Source: Alphaproteobacteria bacterium
GTDB lineage: Bacteria; Pseudomonadota; Alphaproteobacteria; UBA6615
Assembly (NCBI GenBank): GCA_965248805.1
Contig: CBDFKJ010000006.1
Coordinates: 330,978 to 394,977 of the forward strand
Length of the DNA stretch: 64,000 bases
Direction of reading: 5' to 3'
The notes beneath the pieces are model-generated. The model saw only the letters and a program-made list of their open reading frames with translations, was not told the origin of the DNA and searched no databases. Both the position numbers and the translations under genes were made by a program. Positions 2,649-49,892 of the stretch are shown one piece after another (within the stretch, counting starts at the first letter, position 1; each line of letters starts with the position of its first letter).

Positions 2649-4559
2649 ATGGACGGTTCGGGGGGCTTTCTCAGCGGTGCGGGACTTGTGGATGAGGCCA
2701 CCATCAACCGTCGTCAGAACGAGGTGGGAGTGCGAATCGTCATCGAGCCGGAACGCGATGCGTTTCTGACCACCTTCGGCCGCGCCACGTTGGAGGACCG
2801 CTATCTGCTACCCGGCGAATCGATCCAGGACCTGTTCGCCCGCGTGGCGATGCATTTCGCCGACGATTCCGCCCACGCCCAACGCCTCTACGACTACATC
2901 TCCAACCTGTGGTTCATGCCGGCGACGCCGGTCCTGTCCAACGGCGGCACCGCGCGCGGGCTGCCGATTTCCTGCTTCCTCAACGAGGCCGGCGACAGTC
3001 TGGAGGGCATCGTCGATCTCTGGAACGAAAACGTGTGGCTGGCGGCGCGCGGCGGCGGCATCGGCAGCTATTGGGGCAATCTGCGCTCGATCGGCGAAAA
3101 GGTCGGCATGAACGGCAAGACCTCCGGCGTGGTGCCGTTCATTCGCGTCATGGATTCGCTGACGCTGGCCATCTCGCAAGGCTCGCTCCGGCGCGGCTCG
3201 GCGGCGGTCTATTTACCCGTCAGCCATCCCGAGATCGAGGAGTTTGTCGAGCTACGCCGGCCGACCGGCGGCGATCCCAACCGCAAGGCCATGAACCTGC
3301 ATCACGGCGTGTTGGTGCCCGACGAATTCATGCGCGCGGTCGAGGCCGACGCCGAGTGGCCGCTGACGAGTCCCAAGGAGGGCGCGGTCATCCGCACGGT
3401 CTCCGCGCGCGCCCTGTGGATCCGCATCCTCACCTCGCGCATCGAGACCGGCGAGCCCTACATTGTCTTCATCGATACGGTGAACCGCCACGTGCCCGAG
3501 CATCACAAGCTCGCAGGCCTCACCGTCAAGACCTCGAACCTGTGCAGCGAGATCACGTTGCCCACGGGTCCGGACCATCACGGCCATGAGCGTACCGCGG
3601 TCTGTTGCCTGTGCTCGCTCAATCTCGAGACCTTCCTGGAGTGGCGCGACCACCCGACCTTCATCGAGGATGTGATGCGTTTCCTCGACAATGTGATCGA
3701 GGACTTCATCCGCCGCGCGCCGAGCGAATTTGCCCGCGCCCGCTATGCCGCGGCGCGCGAGCGTTCCGTCGGTTTGGGCGTCATGGGCTTTCACTCCTTC
3801 CTGCAGGACCGCATGGTGCCGTTCGAGTCGGCGATGGCCAAGGCATGGAACGTCAACATGTTCCGCCACATCCGCGCCCAGGCCGACCGCGCCAGCCGGA
3901 CGTTGGCGGCCGAGCGCGGCGCCTGCCCCGACGCCGCCGACTACGGTGTCGAGGAGCGCTTTTCCAACAAGATGGCGATTGCGCCGACCGCCTCGATCTC
4001 GATCATCTGCGGCGGCGCCTCGCCGGGCATCGAGCCGATCGCCGCCAACAGCTTTACCCACAAGACGCTGTCGGGCTCGTTTACCGTGCGCTCGAAGGCG
4101 TTGCGGCGCGTGCTCGCCGACAAGGGCCGCGACACCGACACCGTGTGGTCGTCGATCACCGCCCATGAAGGCTCGGTGCAACATCTGGACTTCCTGTCGG
4201 ATGACGAGAAGGATGTCTACAAGACCGCCTTCGAACTCGACCAGCGCTGGCTGATCACCCACGCCGCCGACCGCACACCGCACGTTTGCCAGTCGCAATC
4301 GCTGAACGTTTTCCTGCCCGCCGACGTGCAAAAGCGCGATCTGCACCAGATCCATTTCCAGGCGTGGAAGAAGGGCGTGAAGAGCCTCTACTACCTGCGC
4401 TCGAAGTCGTTGCAGCGTTCCGAATCCGTCGCTTGGACGGCACCCGCCGCCAGCGCCGCCGCGAGCGCCGCCACCGATATACCGGTGGTTGGCCACACGC
4501 CGGCGGTCGAGGTCTCTGCCGCCCGCGTCGACTACGAGGAGTGCCTGGCGTGTCAATGA
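2649..4559 (+). CDS. nrdA: Ribonucleoside-diphosphate reductase alpha subunit, class I, no N-terminal ATP-cone
   Basis: 636 aa from the ATG at 2649, with AAGGGGG upstream. Motifs: PVLSNGG, ISCFLNE, KTSNLCSEITLPTG, C-terminal redox pair CLACQ. The paired R2 gene lies downstream. Confidence 0.9.
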   Translation: MDGSGGFLSGAGLVDEATINRRQNEVGVRIVIEPERDAFLTTFGRATLEDRYLLPGESIQDLFARVAMHFADDSAHAQRLYDYISNLWFMPATPVLSNGGTARGLPISCFLNEAGDSLEGIVDLWNENVWLAARGGGIGSYWGNLRSIGEKVGMNGKTSGVVPFIRVMDSLTLAISQGSLRRGSAAVYLPVSHPEIEEFVELRRPTGGDPNRKAMNLHHGVLVPDEFMRAVEADAEWPLTSPKEGAVIRTVSARALWIRILTSRIETGEPYIVFIDTVNRHVPEHHKLAGLTVKTSNLCSEITLPTGPDHHGHERTAVCCLCSLNLETFLEWRDHPTFIEDVMRFLDNVIEDFIRRAPSEFARARYAAARERSVGLGVMGFHSFLQDRMVPFESAMAKAWNVNMFRHIRAQADRASRTLAAERGACPDAADYGVEERFSNKMAIAPTASISIICGGASPGIEPIAANSFTHKTLSGSFTVRSKALRRVLADKGRDTDTVWSSITAHEGSVQHLDFLSDDEKDVYKTAFELDQRWLITHAADRTPHVCQSQSLNVFLPADVQKRDLHQIHFQAWKKGVKSLYYLRSKSLQRSESVAWTAPAASAAASAATDIPVVGHTPAVEVSAARVDYEECLACQ

Positions 4560-41313: not shown

Positions 41314-43701
41314 ATGGCACAGACCGTCGCCGCGCTGGTAACGGAACTGTCTGCGAACCATGCGGAGTTCCGGCGCGACATGGGCAAGGCCGCCGATGCC
41401 GTCAACTCATCGCGAGCGCGCATCAACCGCGAACTGGGCAAGATCGACAGGGGCTTCGGGCGACTGCGGAAGTCGGTCGGCCGGTCGATCAAATCGGCGC
41501 TCAGCTTCCGTGCCATCGTCGCCGCGGCGGCCGGGTCGGCCGGCTTGGGACTGTTGATCAAGAGTTCCCTGGATGCCGCCGACAGTATCGCCAAGATCGC
41601 CGACAAGGCGGGCGTCTCGACCGACTTCCTGCAGGAACTCCGCTTTGCCGGTTCGCAGACCGGCGTCGCCGGGCGCGATATCGACGATGCGTTCACGCGG
41701 CTGAACCGCCGGCTTGGTCTGTTCGTCACCAACGGCGGCGGCCCGGCGGCGGTCGGTTTCAAGGAACTCGGCATCAGCGCGCGCGACGCCGCCGGCGCCG
41801 TCCGCTCGACCGAGTCCGTGTTCGACGAGATCGTGGCCAAGCTGGAGACCTACGAGAACACGGCGCAGCAGGCCGCGATCGCCTCTGCGTTCTTCGGCGA
41901 GGACGCCGGACCGCGGCTGGTCAACCTGCTGTCGAAGGGCTCCGCCGGCGTTGACGAGCTGCGCCGGAAGGCCCGCGATCTCGGCATCGTGCTCGACGAG
42001 CAGCTGTTGCGGAAATCCGAGCAGGCCAACGACCAGCTCGATGCGCTCGCCAGAACCCTGAAGGCGCAAGTCTTGACGGCCGTGATCGAGAACGCCGACC
42101 AGATCAAGGATTTTGCGACGGTCCTACAGGACAAACTGCCCGGAGCGCTCAGAACAACGATAACGCTCGTCAAGGAGCTGGCCGACAATCTTGCCCTCGT
42201 CGGCCTCGTCATCGCCGGCTTTAGCGGCGCGAGTGCGGGTGCCAGGATCGGTGCAACGTTCGGACCCAAGGGCGCGCTCGTCGGCGGTGTGGCCGGCGCG
42301 GCGGCGGCCGTCGGCAGCACGTTTCTCGCGATGGAGTACCTCAAGAGCCTCACGGACGCGGCCGAAGAAAATATCGACGTAAGGGTCGCCGAGATCCAGG
42401 CCAAGATCGCCAAGCTGGACAGAGTCTCCGGTGTCGCGAGGGCCAACGCTCAGGGGCAAATCAAGAATCTGAACGCGGAACTGGAAACCCTAAAGGCCGC
42501 GAAGGAAGAGCTTTCCGAGCGCGCAGTTTTGCAGCCTGGAGGCGGCACGCCGACGCTGGCCGCGATCACCGCGACCCCGGCAACGGACCCCGGCGGGAAC
42601 GTCATCAAGGGCCTGCGGTTTGAATTGGAGCAGCTCCATCGGACGAGTCAGGAACGCGAGCTGTACAACCGGTTGCGGCAGGCGGGCGTCGCCATCGGTA
42701 CCGAGGAAGGGAGACAGATCAAGGAACTGGTCAGCGACCTCCAGGCGAAAAAGGCCGCCGATCAGCTGGCCGCCGAAGCGACAAGGGATCATCAAGCCGC
42801 CATCCAGGAGACCAAGCGCGAGATCGAGTCTCTGGTCGACGCGACACGCACCCCCCTCGAACGTTTCCACAAATCCTTCCTGGATCTCACCAAACTCGCC
42901 GGCGAGTCGCCGGACGTGTGGAAAGCGGCCGGCCGCGCCATGTCTCAGGCAGCGAAAGAGGCGGCCGAATGGGACAAGGAGATCGCGGCCGGCGGCGACG
43001 ACTTGCAGAAGTTCAACGCCGAGATCGAGCGCCTCAACGACCTGGTCATGCGCGGCAGGATCAGCTGGGACGATTACCGCCGCAGCCTCCGGCGGGCGCA
43101 AGACCACTTCGATGAAGCCGCCGAACGGTCGCGCGAGCTCAAGCGGCTATCGGAGGAACTCGGCAACACCCTTGGCGGCGCGTTCGAGGACGCGATCCTG
43201 TCGGGCCGAAAGCTCGGCGAGGTGCTGCGGTCTCTGGCCCAAGACATCATGGGCCTGATCATCCGAAGCCAGATCACCGCGCCGTTGTCCGACGGCCTCG
43301 GCGACGCTCTGGGAGGCGTGCTGCGCGCAATTCTTGGTGGTTCGACGCCGGCGCTCCCGGCGGGTTCGCCGACGATACCTGTGAAAATCGAGCGGCTGCC
43401 GCCGATCGGCCCGCGAGCCCGAGGCGGGCCGGTTCAGGCGAACAACCTCTATCTCGTCGGTGAAGAGGGGAAGGAGCTGTTCGAGCCTCGAACGGCGGGC
43501 CGGGTCGTCCCGAATTCCGAGCTCGGCGCCGGCTCGATAGATGTCGATATCAATTTCGTCAATCAGGGTACGCCGAAGCGCGAGGTCGACCGCGATGTGC
43601 GCTTCGACGGCGAGCGCTGGGTGCTCTCCCTGGTCGCCGACGATATCGAGACCAACGGCAAGGTCGCCAAGGCAATCGACGCCCGCCAGATGGCGTTCTG
43701 A
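41314..43701 (+). CDS. Tail tape measure protein
   Basis: 795 aa, helical/coiled, at the canonical position. Confidence 0.85.
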   Translation: MAQTVAALVTELSANHAEFRRDMGKAADAVNSSRARINRELGKIDRGFGRLRKSVGRSIKSALSFRAIVAAAAGSAGLGLLIKSSLDAADSIAKIADKAGVSTDFLQELRFAGSQTGVAGRDIDDAFTRLNRRLGLFVTNGGGPAAVGFKELGISARDAAGAVRSTESVFDEIVAKLETYENTAQQAAIASAFFGEDAGPRLVNLLSKGSAGVDELRRKARDLGIVLDEQLLRKSEQANDQLDALARTLKAQVLTAVIENADQIKDFATVLQDKLPGALRTTITLVKELADNLALVGLVIAGFSGASAGARIGATFGPKGALVGGVAGAAAAVGSTFLAMEYLKSLTDAAEENIDVRVAEIQAKIAKLDRVSGVARANAQGQIKNLNAELETLKAAKEELSERAVLQPGGGTPTLAAITATPATDPGGNVIKGLRFELEQLHRTSQERELYNRLRQAGVAIGTEEGRQIKELVSDLQAKKAADQLAAEATRDHQAAIQETKREIESLVDATRTPLERFHKSFLDLTKLAGESPDVWKAAGRAMSQAAKEAAEWDKEIAAGGDDLQKFNAEIERLNDLVMRGRISWDDYRRSLRRAQDHFDEAAERSRELKRLSEELGNTLGGAFEDAILSGRKLGEVLRSLAQDIMGLIIRSQITAPLSDGLGDALGGVLRAILGGSTPALPAGSPTIPVKIERLPPIGPRARGGPVQANNLYLVGEEGKELFEPRTAGRVVPNSELGAGSIDVDINFVNQGTPKREVDRDVRFDGERWVLSLVADDIETNGKVAKAIDARQMAF

Positions 43702-44081
43702 TGGCGGCCTGGCCCGAGTATGCGGCGGTCGCGGCCGACGGCTACAGCGCCGGCCAGGACGGCGATGTCGCCCGCACGCCGTTCGCGGACGGCCTGGTGC
43801 GCCAGGAGAAGCGATTCACCGCGGCGCTCAGCGTGCGCCGTCTCACCGCCTATCTGGCCGACGACGATGCATATGTGCGCTTTCGCACCTGGGCCACCGA
43901 GGACGCTCACCGCTGGTTCGCCTGGGCCGACCCCGAAGACGGTCTGGTGCGCGAGGTGCGGGTGCGCGGCGGCGCCGGCGGCATCCAATACCAGGCGCTC
44001 GGCACCGGCAGTCGCCGGCGTTGGGTCCTGACTTGCGAGCTGGAGGGCTACATGAGCCGAACCATAGAGACGGGAGTCTGA
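43701..44081 (+). CDS. Minor tail protein (gpM position)
   Basis: 126 aa. Its start overlaps the tape-measure stop. Confidence 0.5.
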   Translation: MAAWPEYAAVAADGYSAGQDGDVARTPFADGLVRQEKRFTAALSVRRLTAYLADDDAYVRFRTWATEDAHRWFAWADPEDGLVREVRVRGGAGGIQYQALGTGSRRRWVLTCELEGYMSRTIETGV

Positions 44082-44083
44082 TC

Positions 44084-44461
44084 ATGGGACTAAAGACCGA
44101 AGGCGAGAAACTGTGTTTCCAGGGCGGGCTGTTGTCGGCCACGGTGCATGTGGCCTTGCACACCGCCGACCCGGCGGCCGCCAACGAACTCAGCGGCAAC
44201 AACTACGCCCGCGTCGCCGTGAATGCCGCGGATTGGACCATCAATGCGGGAAACGGGAGAGCCTCGAACACGAACGACATCCGGTTCCCCACGCGCACGG
44301 CTACCTGGAGCAAGCCGACGCATGTCGGCCTGTGGGACGCCGCCACGGGCGGCGACTTGCTGCTGTCCCTCGCCCTCGATGAGGCCGTGCCGGCGCCTTC
44401 ACCTTCGATCGACGTGGCCTTCGACGCCGGCACGCTCATCTTCAATTTGAAGACCGACTAA
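44084..44461 (+). CDS. Hypothetical tail-module protein (125 aa)
   Basis: MGLKTEGEKLCFQGGLLSATVHVALHTADPAAANELSGNNYARVAV... ATG at 44084. Confidence 0.5.
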   Translation: MGLKTEGEKLCFQGGLLSATVHVALHTADPAAANELSGNNYARVAVNAADWTINAGNGRASNTNDIRFPTRTATWSKPTHVGLWDAATGGDLLLSLALDEAVPAPSPSIDVAFDAGTLIFNLKTD

Positions 44462-44467
44462 CCGCGG

Positions 44468-45805
44468 ATGCCGGTTCGCCGTCTACGTCTGGCCGCTACC
44501 TTCACCGGCGGCCGACTCAAAGGCAGCGCACCGCTTCGGCTTCGGCGCCGCCTGCCTCTGGCCGCTACCTTCAGAGGCGCGGCGCTGGCAGGCAGTGCCC
44601 CGCTTCGGCTGCGGCGCCGTCTACGTCTGGCCGCTACCTTCAAAGGCGGCCGACTCAGAGGCAGCGCACCGCTGCGGCTGCGATTGCCTCTCGCCGCTAC
44701 CTTCACCGGCGCGGCGCTGGCAGGCAGTGCCCCGCTTCGGCTGCGGCGCCGTCTACGTCTCGCCGCCACCTTCAGAGGCGCGGCGCTGGCAGGCAGAGCC
44801 CCGCTGCGGCTGCGGCGCCGCCTGCCTCTGGCCGCTACCTTCAGAGGCGCGGTACTGGCCGGCAGAGCCCCGCTTCGGCTTCGGCGCCGTCTACGTCTGG
44901 CCGCTATCTTCAAAGGCGGTCGGCTCAGAGGCAGAGCCCCGCTGCGGCTGCGATTGCGTCTTGCAGCTACCTTCACCGACGCGGCGCTGGCAGGCAGTGC
45001 CCCGCTTCGGCTGCGGCGCCGTCTACGTCTCGCCGCCACCTTCAGAGGCGCGGCGCTGGCAGGCAGAGCCCCGCTGCGGCTGCGGCGCCGCCTGCCTCTG
45101 GCCGCTACCTTCAGAGGCGCGGTACTGGCCGGCAGAGCCCCGCTTCGGCTTCGGCGCCGTCTACGTCTGGCCGCTATCTTCAAAGGCGGTCGGCTCAGAG
45201 GCAGAGCCCCGCTGCGGCTGCGATTGCGTCTTGCAGCTACCTTCACCGACGCCGCGCTGACCGGCAGCGCCCCGCTGCGGCTGCGACTGCGTCTCGCCGC
45301 TACCTTCACCGGCGCCGCGCTGACCGGTAGCGCCCCGCTTCAGCTGCTCCTGAAGCACCGTTACGACCGCGCCTTGCGCGCCAGCTCGCCGCTCGACCGG
45401 GTGCTCACCGCGCTGGAGATCCGCCATCCCGCGATCGTCGAGCCGGTGCGTGTGGTCAACGACGCCGACGATCACACCATCGAGGGCGAACGCTACGTGC
45501 GCCTGCGCTTCGGCGCCCGGTTCGCCGACGACGTCGAGGGCCGGGAACCGCGGGCTGAGCTGGTGATCGACAATGTCGGGCGCGAGCTGACGCAATGGAT
45601 CGAGGCGGCGGGCGGCGGGGTCGGCGCCACCGTGCGCGTGATGCAGGTGGTCGACGACATGCCGGAATGGGAGATGACCATGGACGTCGCCCATATCCGC
45701 CTCGATCAGGAACGCGTGACCGCCCGGCTCGGCTTCGACCCGCTGCTCGGCCGCGCCGCCGTGACACTGCGCCACGATCCGCAAACCAGCCCAGGGCTGT
45801 TCTGA
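44468..45805 (+). CDS. DUF1833-like minor tail protein (gpL position) with a repeat-encoded N-terminal extension; true start uncertain
   Basis: The C-terminal ~150 aa (...LTALEIRHPAIVEPVRVVNDADDHTIEGERYVRLRFGARFADDVEGREPRAELVIDNVGRELTQWIEAA...) looks DUF1833-like. The N-terminal ~290 aa are (LRLAATFxGxxLxGxAPLRLR[RR])x13. Confidence 0.55.
   Translation: MPVRRLRLAATFTGGRLKGSAPLRLRRRLPLAATFRGAALAGSAPLRLRRRLRLAATFKGGRLRGSAPLRLRLPLAATFTGAALAGSAPLRLRRRLRLAATFRGAALAGRAPLRLRRRLPLAATFRGAVLAGRAPLRLRRRLRLAAIFKGGRLRGRAPLRLRLRLAATFTDAALAGSAPLRLRRRLRLAATFRGAALAGRAPLRLRRRLPLAATFRGAVLAGRAPLRLRRRLRLAAIFKGGRLRGRAPLRLRLRLAATFTDAALTGSAPLRLRLRLAATFTGAALTGSAPLQLLLKHRYDRALRASSPLDRVLTALEIRHPAIVEPVRVVNDADDHTIEGERYVRLRFGARFADDVEGREPRAELVIDNVGRELTQWIEAAGGGVGATVRVMQVVDDMPEWEMTMDVAHIRLDQERVTARLGFDPLLGRAAVTLRHDPQTSPGLF
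44483..45349 (+). repeat. Array of 13 tandem repeats of 69 or 63 bp, with a 270-bp higher-order duplication
   Basis: Unit starts: 44483, 44552, 44621, 44684, 44753, 44822, 44891, 44954, 45023, 45092, 45161, 45224, 45287. Segment 44684..44953 nearly equals 44954..45223. Confidence 0.95.
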
Positions 45806-46194
45806 TGCACTGGGCCGAAGCCTACGTCGGCCGTGCCTACGTCGAGGGCAGCTTCGACTGCGCGCACCTGGTGGCCAAGGTGCTGCGCGAGCGGTTCGGG
45901 CGTGACATCGCGCTGCCGTCCCATGCCACGGGTGTCCGCGGCCGCGACGCCCAGATCGCCGCGCTCAAGGGCACGTTCGCCGCTGAGACCGTCACGCCCA
46001 TAGAAGGCGACGGCGTTCTGATGCGCGCCGCCGGGCGCCGCCGCGGCCTCGGCCACCATATCGGCATCTGGTGCGATATCGCCGGCACACCGCACGTGCT
46101 GCACTGCCTCAAGGGCATCGGCGCCTGCCTGCACCCGCTGCGGGCACTCGGCCGCCACGGCCTCGAAACGACAGGGGTGTACCGGTGGCTCTGA
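45805..46194 (+). CDS. NlpC/P60-family tail peptidase (gpK analogue)
   Basis: ...GSFDCAHLVAKVLRERFG...HHIGIW...VLHCL (Cys-His pattern). Confidence 0.7.
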   Translation: MHWAEAYVGRAYVEGSFDCAHLVAKVLRERFGRDIALPSHATGVRGRDAQIAALKGTFAAETVTPIEGDGVLMRAAGRRRGLGHHIGIWCDIAGTPHVLHCLKGIGACLHPLRALGRHGLETTGVYRWL

Positions 46195-49100
46195 GCGCCG
46201 GCGCGCGCCGAGGCGTTGCGCCTGATCCGGGTTTCGTTGCGGCGGGGCAAAGCCCCGTTGCACGACCGGTGCATCGGCCCTGCACGGCGCTTGCACGGCA
46301 CGGCGGGATCACCGCCGATCTGTGGCCGCACCCGCTGACCGCCGAGCGCCGCGAGACCCGCATTCGCGCGCTCGCGCCCGGCGCCACGCTGGCCGATCTG
46401 GTCGCCGCCGAATGGCCCGCGGGCGAGATCGCCGCGGCCGTCAACGGCCGGCCGGTGCCGCGCGAGGCCTGGCGCGCCACGGTGCTTGCCGAAGGCGACA
46501 TCGTCACGCTCCGCGCCGCCATGCACGGCGGCGGCGATGATTCCGATCCCCTCCGCACGATGCTCCAGCTCGCCATCGTGGTGGCCTCGATCGCACTCCC
46601 CCATCTGGCGCCGGCGGGCTGGGGGCTTGTGACCGCGGCCGGCGGGCTCACCCTCAAGGGCGCGCTCATCAGCGGCGCCATCAGCCTCGTCGGCGGCCTG
46701 ATCGTCAATGCCCTCGCTCCGCCGCGCCTGCCCAGGGCGCCCGACGCCGGCACCGCCGCGGCGGCGGCCGAACCGGTCTACTCGCTCGCCGGCGGCGCCA
46801 ACCGGGCGCGCCTCTACGGTCCGCTGCTCCTGGTGCTCGGCACCCACCGCGTCTTTCCCGACTTGGGCGCCGCCGAATACACCGAGTTCGCCGGCGACGA
46901 CCAGTACCTGCTCCAGATCTTCCACTTCGGCCTCGGCGCGCTCGACATCGGCGGGCTCAGGATCGGCGACACGCCGCTCGGCAACTTCGATGAGGTGGAG
47001 ACCGAGTTCGGCGATGCGCAGGGACGGGTGACGCTGGTCGCCGGCAATGTCGACAGCGAAGCCGGCGCCGCGCTCGACGACACCGACTGGATCGAGCGCA
47101 CCACCGCCGCGGATACCAAGCGGATCGGCATCGACCTCGCCGGGACGCTGTTCCGGGTCTCCGATCAGGGCGGCGCTACGCGCCACACCGTCACCGTCGA
47201 GATCGAGTACTGGCCGCAAGGCAACGAGAGCCTGAAGACAAGCCACACCGTCACCCTGTCGAACGGCGACACCACGCCCTATCGCAAGACGCTCGCCTAT
47301 GGTCTTGCCGCGGCCGGCACCTGGACCGTGCGCGTGCGCCGCACGAGCGCGCCCTCATCGAACGAGCGCATCCACGAAGCCATCACCTGGACGGCGCTCA
47401 GGTCCTACCAGCCCGACACCGGCGACTATGCCGGTCAGACCCGGTTGGCGCTGAAGATCCGCGCCTCGGGCCAGCTCTCGGGCCGGCTCGATCGGCTGTC
47501 GGCGACGGTCGGGCAGAAGATCCCGGTCTGGGACGGAACCCAATGGAGCGCGCCGCAGGTCTCCGGCAATCCCGCCTGGCTGTTCCGCTGGTATGCCCGC
47601 GGCATCCATATCGCAGGCAAGCCGGTCGCCGGCGCCGGTCTCGCCGAAACCCGCATCGACGACGAGACCATCAAGGCCTGGGGCGCCTGGTGCGACGCGC
47701 AGGGACTGCGCTGCGACTACGTCATCGACCGCCGGACCACCCATGCCGAGGTGCTGACGCTGATCGCCCAGTGCGGGCGCGCCAATCCGAGTTGGCAGAG
47801 CGGCCGCCTCGGCGTGGTGTGGGATGAGGCGGACAAGCCCGCGACCGCCCTGATCACGCCCGGCAACATCGTCGCCGGGAGCTTCGAGATCGACTACGCC
47901 GGCGGCCAGACGGCCGGCGAGATCGCCTGCCGCTACATCGACCCCGATCTCGATTGGCAATACAACACCGTGCGCCGGGCGGTCCCCCGAGCCGCGCCCG
48001 GTGGCCATACCGCGACCCTGACGCTGGCCGGCGTCACCTCGCGCAGCCAGGCCGCGGCCGAATGCAACCTCCAGGCCGCCCGCCAGCTCTACCACCGCCG
48101 CCGTCTCAAGTGGGAGATGGGCGCCGAGGGCCTGGCCGTCGCCCGCGGCGATGTCGTTCACCTGACCGACGCCCTGATCGACGGCGGCGTCTCCGGGCGG
48201 CTCCACGGCGGCACTGCAGACCGCCTCCGGCTCAATCGGCCCGTCACCCTCTCCGGCGCCGACGACTACCTGCTATTGCGCCTGCCCGACGGCACACTCC
48301 ACAATACCGCCGTCAACCACCCCGACGGCGCCGGCGGCGCCGGCGAGACCGATACCCTGGTGCTCGCCGAACCGTTGCCGGACGCGCCCGATACCCTCGG
48401 CGCCCTCGGCGCCAGCCCGCTCGATACGCTGTGGCGGTTCTACCCCGGCGACGCGCCGCCGGCTCGGGTGCGCATCGTCGCCATGGAGCCCACCGCCGAG
48501 GGTCGCGTGCGCATCGAGGCCATCGACGAGGTCGAGGCCTATTACCGCGCCGCCACGAGCGATCTGACGGTGCCGTTGCCGATGGTCGGGCACCGCCCGC
48601 CCCGGGTGCTGCACATCGCGCTCTCCGAGACCCTGATCCGCATCAGCAACGGCTTTGCCGTCGAGGTCGCCGCCAGCCTCACCGTCGCCGGCGACTGGCG
48701 CGGCGGCATCGTCCGCGCAGCGCTCGACGGCGGCCCGTTGCAGACAGTGGACAGGCTGATCGACGGCGCCACCGAAGCCTCGTGGCGCGTGCCGCCGTCG
48801 GGCAGGCTCACGATCACCGTCATTCCCGGCACCGAGGCAGCGCCCGCCGGCGCGCCGTTCACCGTCGATTACACTATCCGCGGCAAGCTGGCGCCGCCGG
48901 GCAATGTCGCCGACTTCCTGGTCGATGCCCTGGGTGACGGCACACGGCGCTTCCGCTGGACCCCGCCGGCCGATCCCGATCTCGCCGGCTACCGCATCCG
49001 CCATGCCGAGGCGGTCGTCGGTGCAGCGGCGCCCACCTGGGACGCCATGACGCCGCTGCATAACGGGTTGCTCACCTCGTCGCCCCACGAGACCGTCGAT

Positions 49101-49892
49101 CCCGGCGCCGGCCGCTGGACCTTCGCCATCCGCGCCGAGGACACCTCGGGCCTGCTCTCGGCCGCGGCCGCCGTCATCATCGCCGAGCTGCCCGATCCCC
49201 GCCTCGGCGACGCCTTTCTGTGGGAATGCCCTTCCGCCCGAGGCTGGCCCGGCACGATCGAGAGCGCCGTGCGCTCCGACGACGGCCGGGACGCGCTGGA
49301 GGGCGCCGGCGCCTACACCTGGGCCGACCTCGCCACCTGGAACGCCTGGACCTCGTGGGCGCTTGGCGACGGCGACGACGGCGCCACCGCCATGACCTAC
49401 ACCACCGAGCCCATCGACATCGGCGCCGAGGTACCGTTCTCGATCGCCTGGGAGGCCGAGACGGCCGGAAACGTGACGCTGCAGTACCGCACCGCCGACA
49501 CCGCTTCCGGGCTGGCCACCGCCACCTGGCAGGATAACGCGGCGGCCATGCTCATAACCGCGCGCCACCTGCAGCTGCGCTGGCAACTGACCGGCGACGG
49601 CGCCACCATGCTTAGCCTCGACCACCTCTGCTACACCCTGCTCGGCACCGCCGCCGAGCAGAAGTTCCTCGACGCCGATACCAGCGACTGGAGCGGTTCG
49701 GCGAGCGGCGGGCGCGAGGTGCCGACCACGCTCGCGCGCGTCACCGATATCGACCTCACCCTGCAATCGGTCGGCGCCGGCTGGTCGTGGGTGCTCGACA
49801 ACAAGAACGATCCCACCCGCATCAAGATCTTCGACGGCAGCGGCAATGCCGCCGACGCCACCGTCGACGCCGTCCTGCACGGCATCGCCTGA
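46185..49892 (+). CDS. Host-specificity / tail-tip protein (gpJ/TipJ-like) with an N-terminal gpI-like segment
   Basis: About 1236 aa from the GTG at 46185 (start uncertain). The N-terminal ubiquitin-like plus hydrophobic region (IVTLRAAMHGGG...LQLAIVVASIALP...ISLVGGLIVNALAPP) is followed by a large J-like body. Confidence 0.75.
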   Translation: MALSAGARRGVAPDPGFVAAGQSPVARPVHRPCTALARHGGITADLWPHPLTAERRETRIRALAPGATLADLVAAEWPAGEIAAAVNGRPVPREAWRATVLAEGDIVTLRAAMHGGGDDSDPLRTMLQLAIVVASIALPHLAPAGWGLVTAAGGLTLKGALISGAISLVGGLIVNALAPPRLPRAPDAGTAAAAAEPVYSLAGGANRARLYGPLLLVLGTHRVFPDLGAAEYTEFAGDDQYLLQIFHFGLGALDIGGLRIGDTPLGNFDEVETEFGDAQGRVTLVAGNVDSEAGAALDDTDWIERTTAADTKRIGIDLAGTLFRVSDQGGATRHTVTVEIEYWPQGNESLKTSHTVTLSNGDTTPYRKTLAYGLAAAGTWTVRVRRTSAPSSNERIHEAITWTALRSYQPDTGDYAGQTRLALKIRASGQLSGRLDRLSATVGQKIPVWDGTQWSAPQVSGNPAWLFRWYARGIHIAGKPVAGAGLAETRIDDETIKAWGAWCDAQGLRCDYVIDRRTTHAEVLTLIAQCGRANPSWQSGRLGVVWDEADKPATALITPGNIVAGSFEIDYAGGQTAGEIACRYIDPDLDWQYNTVRRAVPRAAPGGHTATLTLAGVTSRSQAAAECNLQAARQLYHRRRLKWEMGAEGLAVARGDVVHLTDALIDGGVSGRLHGGTADRLRLNRPVTLSGADDYLLLRLPDGTLHNTAVNHPDGAGGAGETDTLVLAEPLPDAPDTLGALGASPLDTLWRFYPGDAPPARVRIVAMEPTAEGRVRIEAIDEVEAYYRAATSDLTVPLPMVGHRPPRVLHIALSETLIRISNGFAVEVAASLTVAGDWRGGIVRAALDGGPLQTVDRLIDGATEASWRVPPSGRLTITVIPGTEAAPAGAPFTVDYTIRGKLAPPGNVADFLVDALGDGTRRFRWTPPADPDLAGYRIRHAEAVVGAAAPTWDAMTPLHNGLLTSSPHETVDPGAGRWTFAIRAEDTSGLLSAAAAVIIAELPDPRLGDAFLWECPSARGWPGTIESAVRSDDGRDALEGAGAYTWADLATWNAWTSWALGDGDDGATAMTYTTEPIDIGAEVPFSIAWEAETAGNVTLQYRTADTASGLATATWQDNAAAMLITARHLQLRWQLTGDGATMLSLDHLCYTLLGTAAEQKFLDADTSDWSGSASGGREVPTTLARVTDIDLTLQSVGAGWSWVLDNKNDPTRIKIFDGSGNAADATVDAVLHGIA

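Follow-up and report, generated by a model that had tools for sequence, protein, structure and literature searches.

The window analyzed here, a 64,000-nucleotide (nt) stretch of contig CBDFKJ010000006.1 from an Alphaproteobacteria bacterium (assembly GCA_965248805.1), encodes a tail protein of 445 amino acids (aa) in which a tandem repeat array precedes a C-terminal DUF1833 domain. We propose that the array is translated as a rope on this hub protein, predicted to carry beads formed by the Gp80-like product of the neighboring gene and to give three bead-chain fibres per virion, a reading that we regard as likely, if some way short of secure. It is the presence of the Gp80-like gene just upstream that points to a likely function for the arm. 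The coordinates of all features are collected in Table 1.

A repeat arm on a baseplate hub 1 domain

Tandem Repeats Finder returned a single array (44477-45347) in which it detected periods of 69, 201 and 270 nt, and anchoring on the motif GC[CA]GC[TC]A[TC]CTTC placed 13 units from position 44480, with lengths of 69, 69, 63, 69, 69, 69, 63, 69, 69, 69, 63, 63 and 63 nt (867 bp in sum). The two approaches agree with the original prediction, made from the DNA letters alone, which had described 13 in-frame units of 63 or 69 bp at the 5′ end of a gene in the gpL position. All 13 unit starts are in frame with the ATG at 44468, and the open reading frame (ORF) continues to 45805. Units 4-7 (44681-44950) and units 8-11 (44951-45220) form two 270-bp blocks with four base differences between them; the register in which this near-exact duplication was first noticed (44684..44953 versus 44954..45223) yields an equal count. 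The encoded arm comprises 293 aa, including 69 Arg and 4 Lys, and has a net charge of +71 and an isoelectric point of 12, matching the very basic extension of about 290 aa that had been anticipated.

The C-terminal ~150 aa constitute a baseplate hub 1 domain, the counterpart of lambda gpL and Sf11 gp16. PF08875 (DUF1833) matched aa 302-435 at 65 bits when the whole protein was the query and at 68.7 bits with the domain by itself (cut-off 21), and phrog_396 (minor tail protein) matched with an E value of 3e-21. AlphaFold2 modeled this domain with a predicted local distance difference test score (pLDDT) of ~90, placing a conserved helix at aa 296-306, and modeled the arm, as a monomer, with a pLDDT of ~30. 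Using the DUF1833 model as a query, Foldseek matched Sf11 gp16 (9occ_F, E 9.3e-9), lambda gpL (8iyk_L, E 7e-7) and the T1 tail tip (9l9p_J, E 2e-6), with further matches to T5 pb3, JBD30 and the gene transfer agent (GTA) virion; a profile search also reached 9occ_F at E 0.003. Sf11 gp16 is named "Baseplate hub 1 protein" and is present in 3 copies per virion (PMC12724387). The DUF1833 match, the hub 1 fold and the gene order bear out the placement in the gpL position.

Sf11 gp16, lambda gpL and the usual DUF1833 minor tail proteins resemble the window protein in PF08875, in fold and in their slot between gpM-like and gpK-like genes. However, the usual proteins are single domains of about 150-170 aa, whereas the window protein carries an extra 293-aa arm. 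Among cultured phages, 29 DUF1833 records matched, each to aa 312-445 only and at ~30% identity, and all were single-domain. Neither the arm nor the N-terminal domains of its relatives corresponded to any family in Pfam, PHROGs or NCBIfam, and a literature search on "DUF1833" returned passing mentions only.

Frame and length of the array across relatives

Evidence for coding within the array itself is weak, and comparison with relatives is decisive. Because the units measure 63 or 69 nt, preservation of the frame alone does not indicate coding. All three forward frames and one reverse frame had been described as open; over the whole array, only the annotated frame is free of stops, with two and one in the other forward frames and one in the best reverse frame. 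The companion statement, that third-position GC does not single out the annotated frame, was reproduced: GC at codon positions 1/2/3 of the array is 0.79/0.69/0.69, the third-position value (GC3) of the neighboring genes is 0.82-0.90, and the codon-usage score of the array is negative in all six frames. Variable columns among the window units number 15 at codon position 3, 3 at position 1 and 8 at position 2, and synonymous/non-synonymous differences among units amount to 237/188 in the sense frame and 228/186 in the antisense frame sharing its wobble position. No promoter-like or terminator-like site was found at the array region. An antisense ORF at 44458-45309 was rejected: no reverse frame is open in the relatives, and the sense frame runs on into DUF1833.

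A whole-protein search returned more than 120 DUF1833 proteins of 250-675 aa, and we read their architecture from these sequences together with the ORFs of 40 or more loci fetched from metagenome-assembled genomes (MAGs). The common arrangement consists of zero to two globular N-terminal domains, one to six or more units of 21-25 aa, and then DUF1833. The repeats include LRLAATLxGxGRLxGRARLRRR, VPLAASFTGDALSASARLRI and RGAASAGAAQARARLRRIPALAI, and the 21-25-aa periods were confirmed by periodicity analysis. In most relatives, the repeats, the folded N-terminal domains and DUF1833 lie within one ORF. An AlphaFold2 model of a 556-aa relative (73-sequence alignment) gave a pLDDT of ~90 at aa 1-133 and 160-305 and of 30-48 in the repeats, which are similarly unfolded to the window arm; with this relative, Foldseek matched the DUF1833 domain only and returned nothing for the N-terminal globular domains. 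As the repeats of relatives with N-terminal domains lie between two folded domains, translation must run through them. The ORF frame was the sole stop-free frame in 12/12 arrays examined, and the arrays of the relatives have a GC3 of 0.86-0.96, an ordinary coding composition. Searching with a profile of the window units recovered repeats in P0001-P0004, L003, L005 and L012, with a weak match in P0012. Read against these relatives, the window array is very probably translated.

The number of units varies among proteins with the same N terminus, MPVRRLRLAATF: there are 3 in P0122 (224 aa), 4 in both P0123 (242 aa) and P0002 (247 aa), 6 in P0121 (289 aa) and 13 in the window. P0002, P0121 and P0122 fall in one 90%-identity cluster, and the hub domain of P0123 is 97% identical to that of the window. 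The arrays of P0001, P0002, P0121 and P0122 were compared as proteins; P0001 (428 aa) has about 6-7 units behind a different N-terminal part, and L015 has 1 unit. These same-start relatives, and more than 100 family members from uncultured Alphaproteobacteria with the repeats in frame, uphold the idea of a length-variable N-terminal arm on a tail-tip protein. The suggestion of a contingency locus fared less well, holding only insofar as copy number changes among relatives: with unit lengths divisible by 3, an array that gains or loses units stays in frame and cannot turn the gene off. What varies is length, as distinct from on/off phase variation. The DNA pattern of the repeat unit had no match in metagenome contigs, and a search for related loci with the window protein alone had none in genome contigs or viral contigs.

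Two further forms were also observed. P0001, from another genome, combines a near-identical rope-DUF1833 portion with an unrelated 130-aa N-terminal part (MAGDGRGT...DGWIDVFRAGAHRDSAGRERTWSTDDL...), which may reflect a rearrangement or an alternative cap domain of the rope. The array of locus L044 contains an out-of-frame junction between a window-type unit and P0005-type units (VKLAPGAIDGGFAASARLRYRI), resembling recombination of two rope types.

The Gp80-like gene, known bead-on-rope fibres and flanking genes

The proposed bead, the Gp80-like protein, matched PF23140, the family of the podophage GP4 fiber I protein gp80, and aligned over aa 14-115 with GP4 gp80 itself (PDB 8jou_a; E values in Table 1); its net charge is -5. 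Every fetched locus was scanned with one profile for the bead protein and another for the M-position protein, and four loci were added by exact-protein look-up. Both a repeat arm and a Gp80-like gene occurred in 21 loci (the window, L001-L012, L014-L017, L040, L044, L048 and L049), in the order M-like, Gp80-like and DUF1833 with repeats. Neither occurred in ~24 loci, where the M-like gene abuts a repeat-less DUF1833 gene. The latter include same-clade loci whose hub domains are 70-75% identical: L013 (with a globular N-terminal domain), L018 and L019 (FN3 arms), and L046 and L047 (short forms). None of the ~45 loci had just one of the two features, L037, whose ORF runs off the locus, being unscored.

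Two bead subfamilies (MGLKTEGEK... and MPIAAAEQNRA...) pair with two repeat types. In 12/12 loci measured, the beads are acidic (-1 to -16) and the ropes are basic (+1.7 to +5.3 per unit); the two charges were not significantly correlated across these 12 loci (rho -0.41, p 0.18), and we report the complementarity of sign alone. An in-unit pseudo-palindrome, which would match a two-fold bead dimer, was weak in the window group (p 0.01-0.07) and absent from the other group, and was not used.

Bead-on-rope fibres were recently solved in the Ralstonia podophage GP4, the Pseudomonas podophage A1002 and the myophage Bas63. In GP4, according to the A1002 paper, fiber I consists of five gp80 dimers on a separately encoded rope protein (PMC13730344), and VP1 is also cited there for fibres of this kind. 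The A1002 nozzle-rope protein gp39 has 11 docking sites; its rope domain (residues 243-468, 3-32 and 96-107, about 268 aa) provides ~24 aa per dimer, is ~300 Å long and ends in an Ig-like domain, and each dimer forms an augmented β-sheet with it (PMC13730344). The Bas63 rope is the long N-terminal extension of its collar protein; it completes the incomplete sandwiches of whisker dimers that wrap round it "as beads on a string" (PMC12609058). The fibres of GP4, A1002 and Bas63 are attached at the neck collar or nozzle (PMC13730344, PMC12609058), and a surface-binding role has only been speculated for those of GP4 and Bas63 (PMC12609058). Our literature search found no description of a bead-on-rope fibre at a siphophage tail tip or fused to a hub 1 protein.

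The window system shares features with each of these fibres. With GP4 (PDB 8JOU), it has in common a homologous bead, a bead gene adjoining the gene of a repeat-bearing partner and the expectation of several dimers per rope; it differs in that the GP4 rope is separate, sits on an Ig-like collar near the podophage neck and carries five dimers, whereas the window rope is fused to a siphophage-type hub and has 13 units. Like that of A1002, the proposed rope belongs to a core tail protein as one of its domains, its gene neighbors the bead gene, and the spacing is close (~24 aa per site there, 21-23 aa here), and the Ig-like end of the A1002 rope resembles the globular N-terminal domains in relatives of the window protein. 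A1002, in contrast, has a split nozzle anchor in six copies and two bead proteins (gp40 and gp41), compared with a DUF1833 hub, expected in three copies, and one bead gene here. Bas63 likewise uses an N-terminal extension of a structural protein as a rope for GP4-gp80-like whisker dimers, but with only two dimers per rope, in 12 copies and at the neck collar instead of the tail tip. Separately, we observed that GP4 gp79 (L045 2206-3183), directly 3′ of gp80, is Gly/Ala-rich and that periods of 20 aa (z 5.8) and 10 aa (z 4.5) run through its first ~226 aa. The PDB sequence set lacks this protein, a candidate for the GP4 rope.

Bead-to-repeat binding, stoichiometry, fibre geometry and a role in adsorption are what we infer for the window system. 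Each unit of 21 or 23 aa, with its strand-like segments RLRLAATF and xLxGxAPLRL, would dock one Gp80-like dimer. The arm, predicted to be unfolded on its own, would gain order by contributing strands to incomplete β-sandwiches in the beads, as in GP4, A1002 and Bas63. Three hub subunits would then give three side fibres at the tail tip, each with up to 13 dimers, or 78 bead monomers in all. Scaling from A1002 (11 dimers, ~30 nm) suggests a fibre of ~35 nm, and the fibres would probably serve reversible binding to the host surface. Unequal recombination of near-identical units would shift their number while always keeping the frame, with the 270-bp block as the putative latest event.

The gene order of the window is tape measure, M-like, Gp80-like, DUF1833, K-like and I/J-like, and related loci match it, with the Gp80-like gene optional. 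A homologue of the gpM-position gene is present in nearly all of them, lying before DUF1833 in armless loci and before the Gp80-like gene where there is an arm, and a gene of ~129 aa lies directly 3′ of DUF1833 in all of them.

Table 1. Features of the tail-tip region, in coordinates of the window.
Feature	Position	Strand	Evidence or remark
Small tail protein, gpM position, directly after the tape measure gene	43701..44081	+	phrog_384, E 3e-10
Gp80-like protein, 122 aa, proposed bead	44093..44461	+	PF23140 E 1.4e-23; 8jou_a E 4.7e-7
445-aa ORF, repeat arm and DUF1833 baseplate hub 1 domain	44468..45805	+	ORF list; ATG 6 nt past the Gp80-like stop
Array of 13 tandem units, 69 or 63 nt	44480..45346	+	Consensus RLRLAATFxGxxLxGxAPLRL(RR)
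Two 270-bp four-unit blocks, units 4-7 and units 8-11	44681..45220	+	4 base differences
Linker helix and DUF1833 domain, baseplate hub 1/gpL-like core	45347..45805	+	PF08875, phrog_396, AlphaFold2, Foldseek
Minor tail protein, gpK position	45805..46194	+	phrog_329, E 4.6e-5; start overlaps the DUF1833 gene stop
gpI/gpJ-like tip attachment protein	46071..49892	+	PF24801 (FNIII-A_GpJ), PF13550 (Phage-tail_3), ThiS-like N-terminal stretch; ORF limits, true start uncertain

Several side observations concern these genes. The Gp80-like family is listed as phrog_240 "head protein" in PHROGs, and likewise in RefSeq phage records; in solved structures it is a fibre or whisker subunit. The Gp80-like and rope genes share a frame, with a stop and two codons between them (TAA CCG CGG ATG, 44459-44470). 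The same in-frame 6-nt spacing occurs in L001 (5992-6003), in L002 and between GP4 gp80 and gp79 (L045 2197-2208), and is absent from L048 and L049; at L044, the junction sequence is identical to that of the window. No evidence of readthrough was found at the Gp80-like/rope junction. Locus L037 (2-4417), from a Dehalococcoidia MAG, encodes a DUF1833 protein of more than 1470 aa with many acidic 25-aa repeats (TNRDAAADLSSGAPAVSAAGDAQAL) and several interleaved globular domains. In one Ruegeria sp. MAG, a short-form locus (M-like then DUF1833) is present six times across three contigs (L025-L030), with identical match statistics; this could be a multi-copy element or a duplicated assembly.

Weighing the readings

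A number of observations count against a translated rope that carries beads. The window arm has no terminal globular domain, unlike most relatives and A1002. A phmmer search of the arm against PDB sequences gave no match at E values up to 10, in a set for which the presence of solved rope chains is not established. An hhalign comparison of window-type repeats with the RGAASAGAA-type repeats found in the 556-aa relatives showed no significant similarity (probability 0.4%), and we do not claim homology of the two types. Codon usage in the array is unusual: CGT and AGA make up 22% and 21% of its Arg codons versus 2% each in reference genes, CTT, CTA, GCT and GCA are likewise elevated, and codons rare in the genome are overrepresented. 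With the GC3 of 0.69, this may be a sign of relaxed selection in a decaying prophage; if a few founder units were amplified, such codons would be copied many times. The relatives had been proposed as a check on whether copy number varies and indels preserve the frame. Copy number varies and the frame is kept in most, but the arrays of L004 (~3900-3990), L012 (~3700-3850) and L044 (3760-3900) contain frameshifts. L044 is a contig of 7x coverage in which a neighboring gene is also broken, and its frameshift is likely decay or sequencing error. The best topology of the hub-domain tree needs 6 joint changes versus 13.4 in shuffles, in a tree so poorly resolved that its strongly supported branches force only one; the association of bead gene and arm is therefore perfect, its phylogenetic independence is weak, and the co-occurrence may reflect few evolutionary events. 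Finally, the Logan contigs of the four locus-bearing runs, X1-X4, lack the words specific to unit 8 (44955-44979), which makes the duplication and the count of 13 provisional, although these contigs are short unitigs from a mixed population and show presence, not absence.

Among the alternatives, we give a modest chance to an arm that is translated and beadless, acting as a flexible basic tether or spacer that might stick electrostatically to anionic surface polymers or, in relatives, simply keep N-terminal globular or FN3 domains off the tip. The net charge of +71 and the lack of an AlphaFold2 fold for the arm suit such a role, as do L013, L018 and L019, which display FN3 or other β-rich N-terminal domains without repeats and show that other modules are possible at this site. 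A plain linker, however, needs no period of 21-25 aa with Gly, Ala and hydrophobic positions conserved across distant relatives. It also leaves the matching occurrence of Gp80-like gene and repeats unexplained, including their joint absence from those same three loci, and the window protein has no N-terminal domain to be linked. The original prediction had further considered a non-coding array with the gene starting near 45350-45400, at TTG 45374 or GTG 45401, and this we consider very improbable. Its appeal lies in the GC3, which singles out no frame in the window array, in a homologue at L044 (P0124) that one gene caller began at the equivalent MRASSPLDRV position, and in the lack of a clear Shine-Dalgarno sequence before either start. 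The late start of P0124 is explained by the frameshift in the upstream part of L044. A start at TTG 45374 fits poorly because it would truncate the conserved RYxRALRxS helix, which short-form relatives precede by 5-8 residues, and homologous repeats with coding GC3 lie inside continuous ORFs of dozens of relatives. An untranslated array would moreover leave an 880-bp gap, unique in this tightly packed operon and devoid of promoter-like or terminator-like sites.

There is a rather small chance that the array is real and its length an assembly artefact, with the 270-bp block duplicated or collapsed and a true count of 9 or some other number. Besides the missing unit-8 words, the four runs with the locus hold a related variant: over 44356-46113 they differ from the window at fixed positions that include 45394 C>G, 45556 T>C, 45766 A>G and 45784 A>G, so the sample contains at least one closely related prophage variant. 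Against this stand the Logan contigs that cover the array edges exactly (44461-44566, 45093-45222 and 45193-45372) and the relatives that independently have 3-6 units; an artefact would touch the count only and is compatible with a rope. A slim chance goes to runaway expansion, in which a once-functional short rope has grown in a decaying prophage and, translated or not, is no longer under selection. Such a history would suit the low GC3 relative to the neighboring genes, the codon-usage score that is negative in every frame, the very recent 270-bp duplication with its 4 differences and the frameshifted arrays of L004, L012 and L044. Yet the 445-codon ORF is unbroken, the tail genes on either side are likewise intact and closely spaced, and the differences between units still fall mostly at third codon positions.

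If the bead-carrying rope is correct, an uncultured clade of siphophage-type prophages, mostly in marine and sponge-associated Alphaproteobacteria, may have moved a GP4-type fibre from the neck or nozzle to the tail tip by fusing a rope to hub 1, with its length, from 1 to 13 or more dimers, tuned by in-frame gain and loss of repeats; for this broader proposal, we put the chances at slightly under even. Repeat number would then be an adsorption or host-range trait that evolves fast and is directly visible in the genome sequence. The comparison suggests that a bead-on-rope module can be attached to a siphophage-type tail-tip hub by simple gene fusion, and that a rope may be recognized from sequence as tandem units of 21-25 aa adjoining a PF23140 gene. 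The natural series of 1, 3, 4, 6 and 13 units could serve to relate fibre length to adsorption. For a widespread and unannotated N-terminal extension of proteins that are currently annotated as "DUF1833" only, the proposed rope would offer a function.

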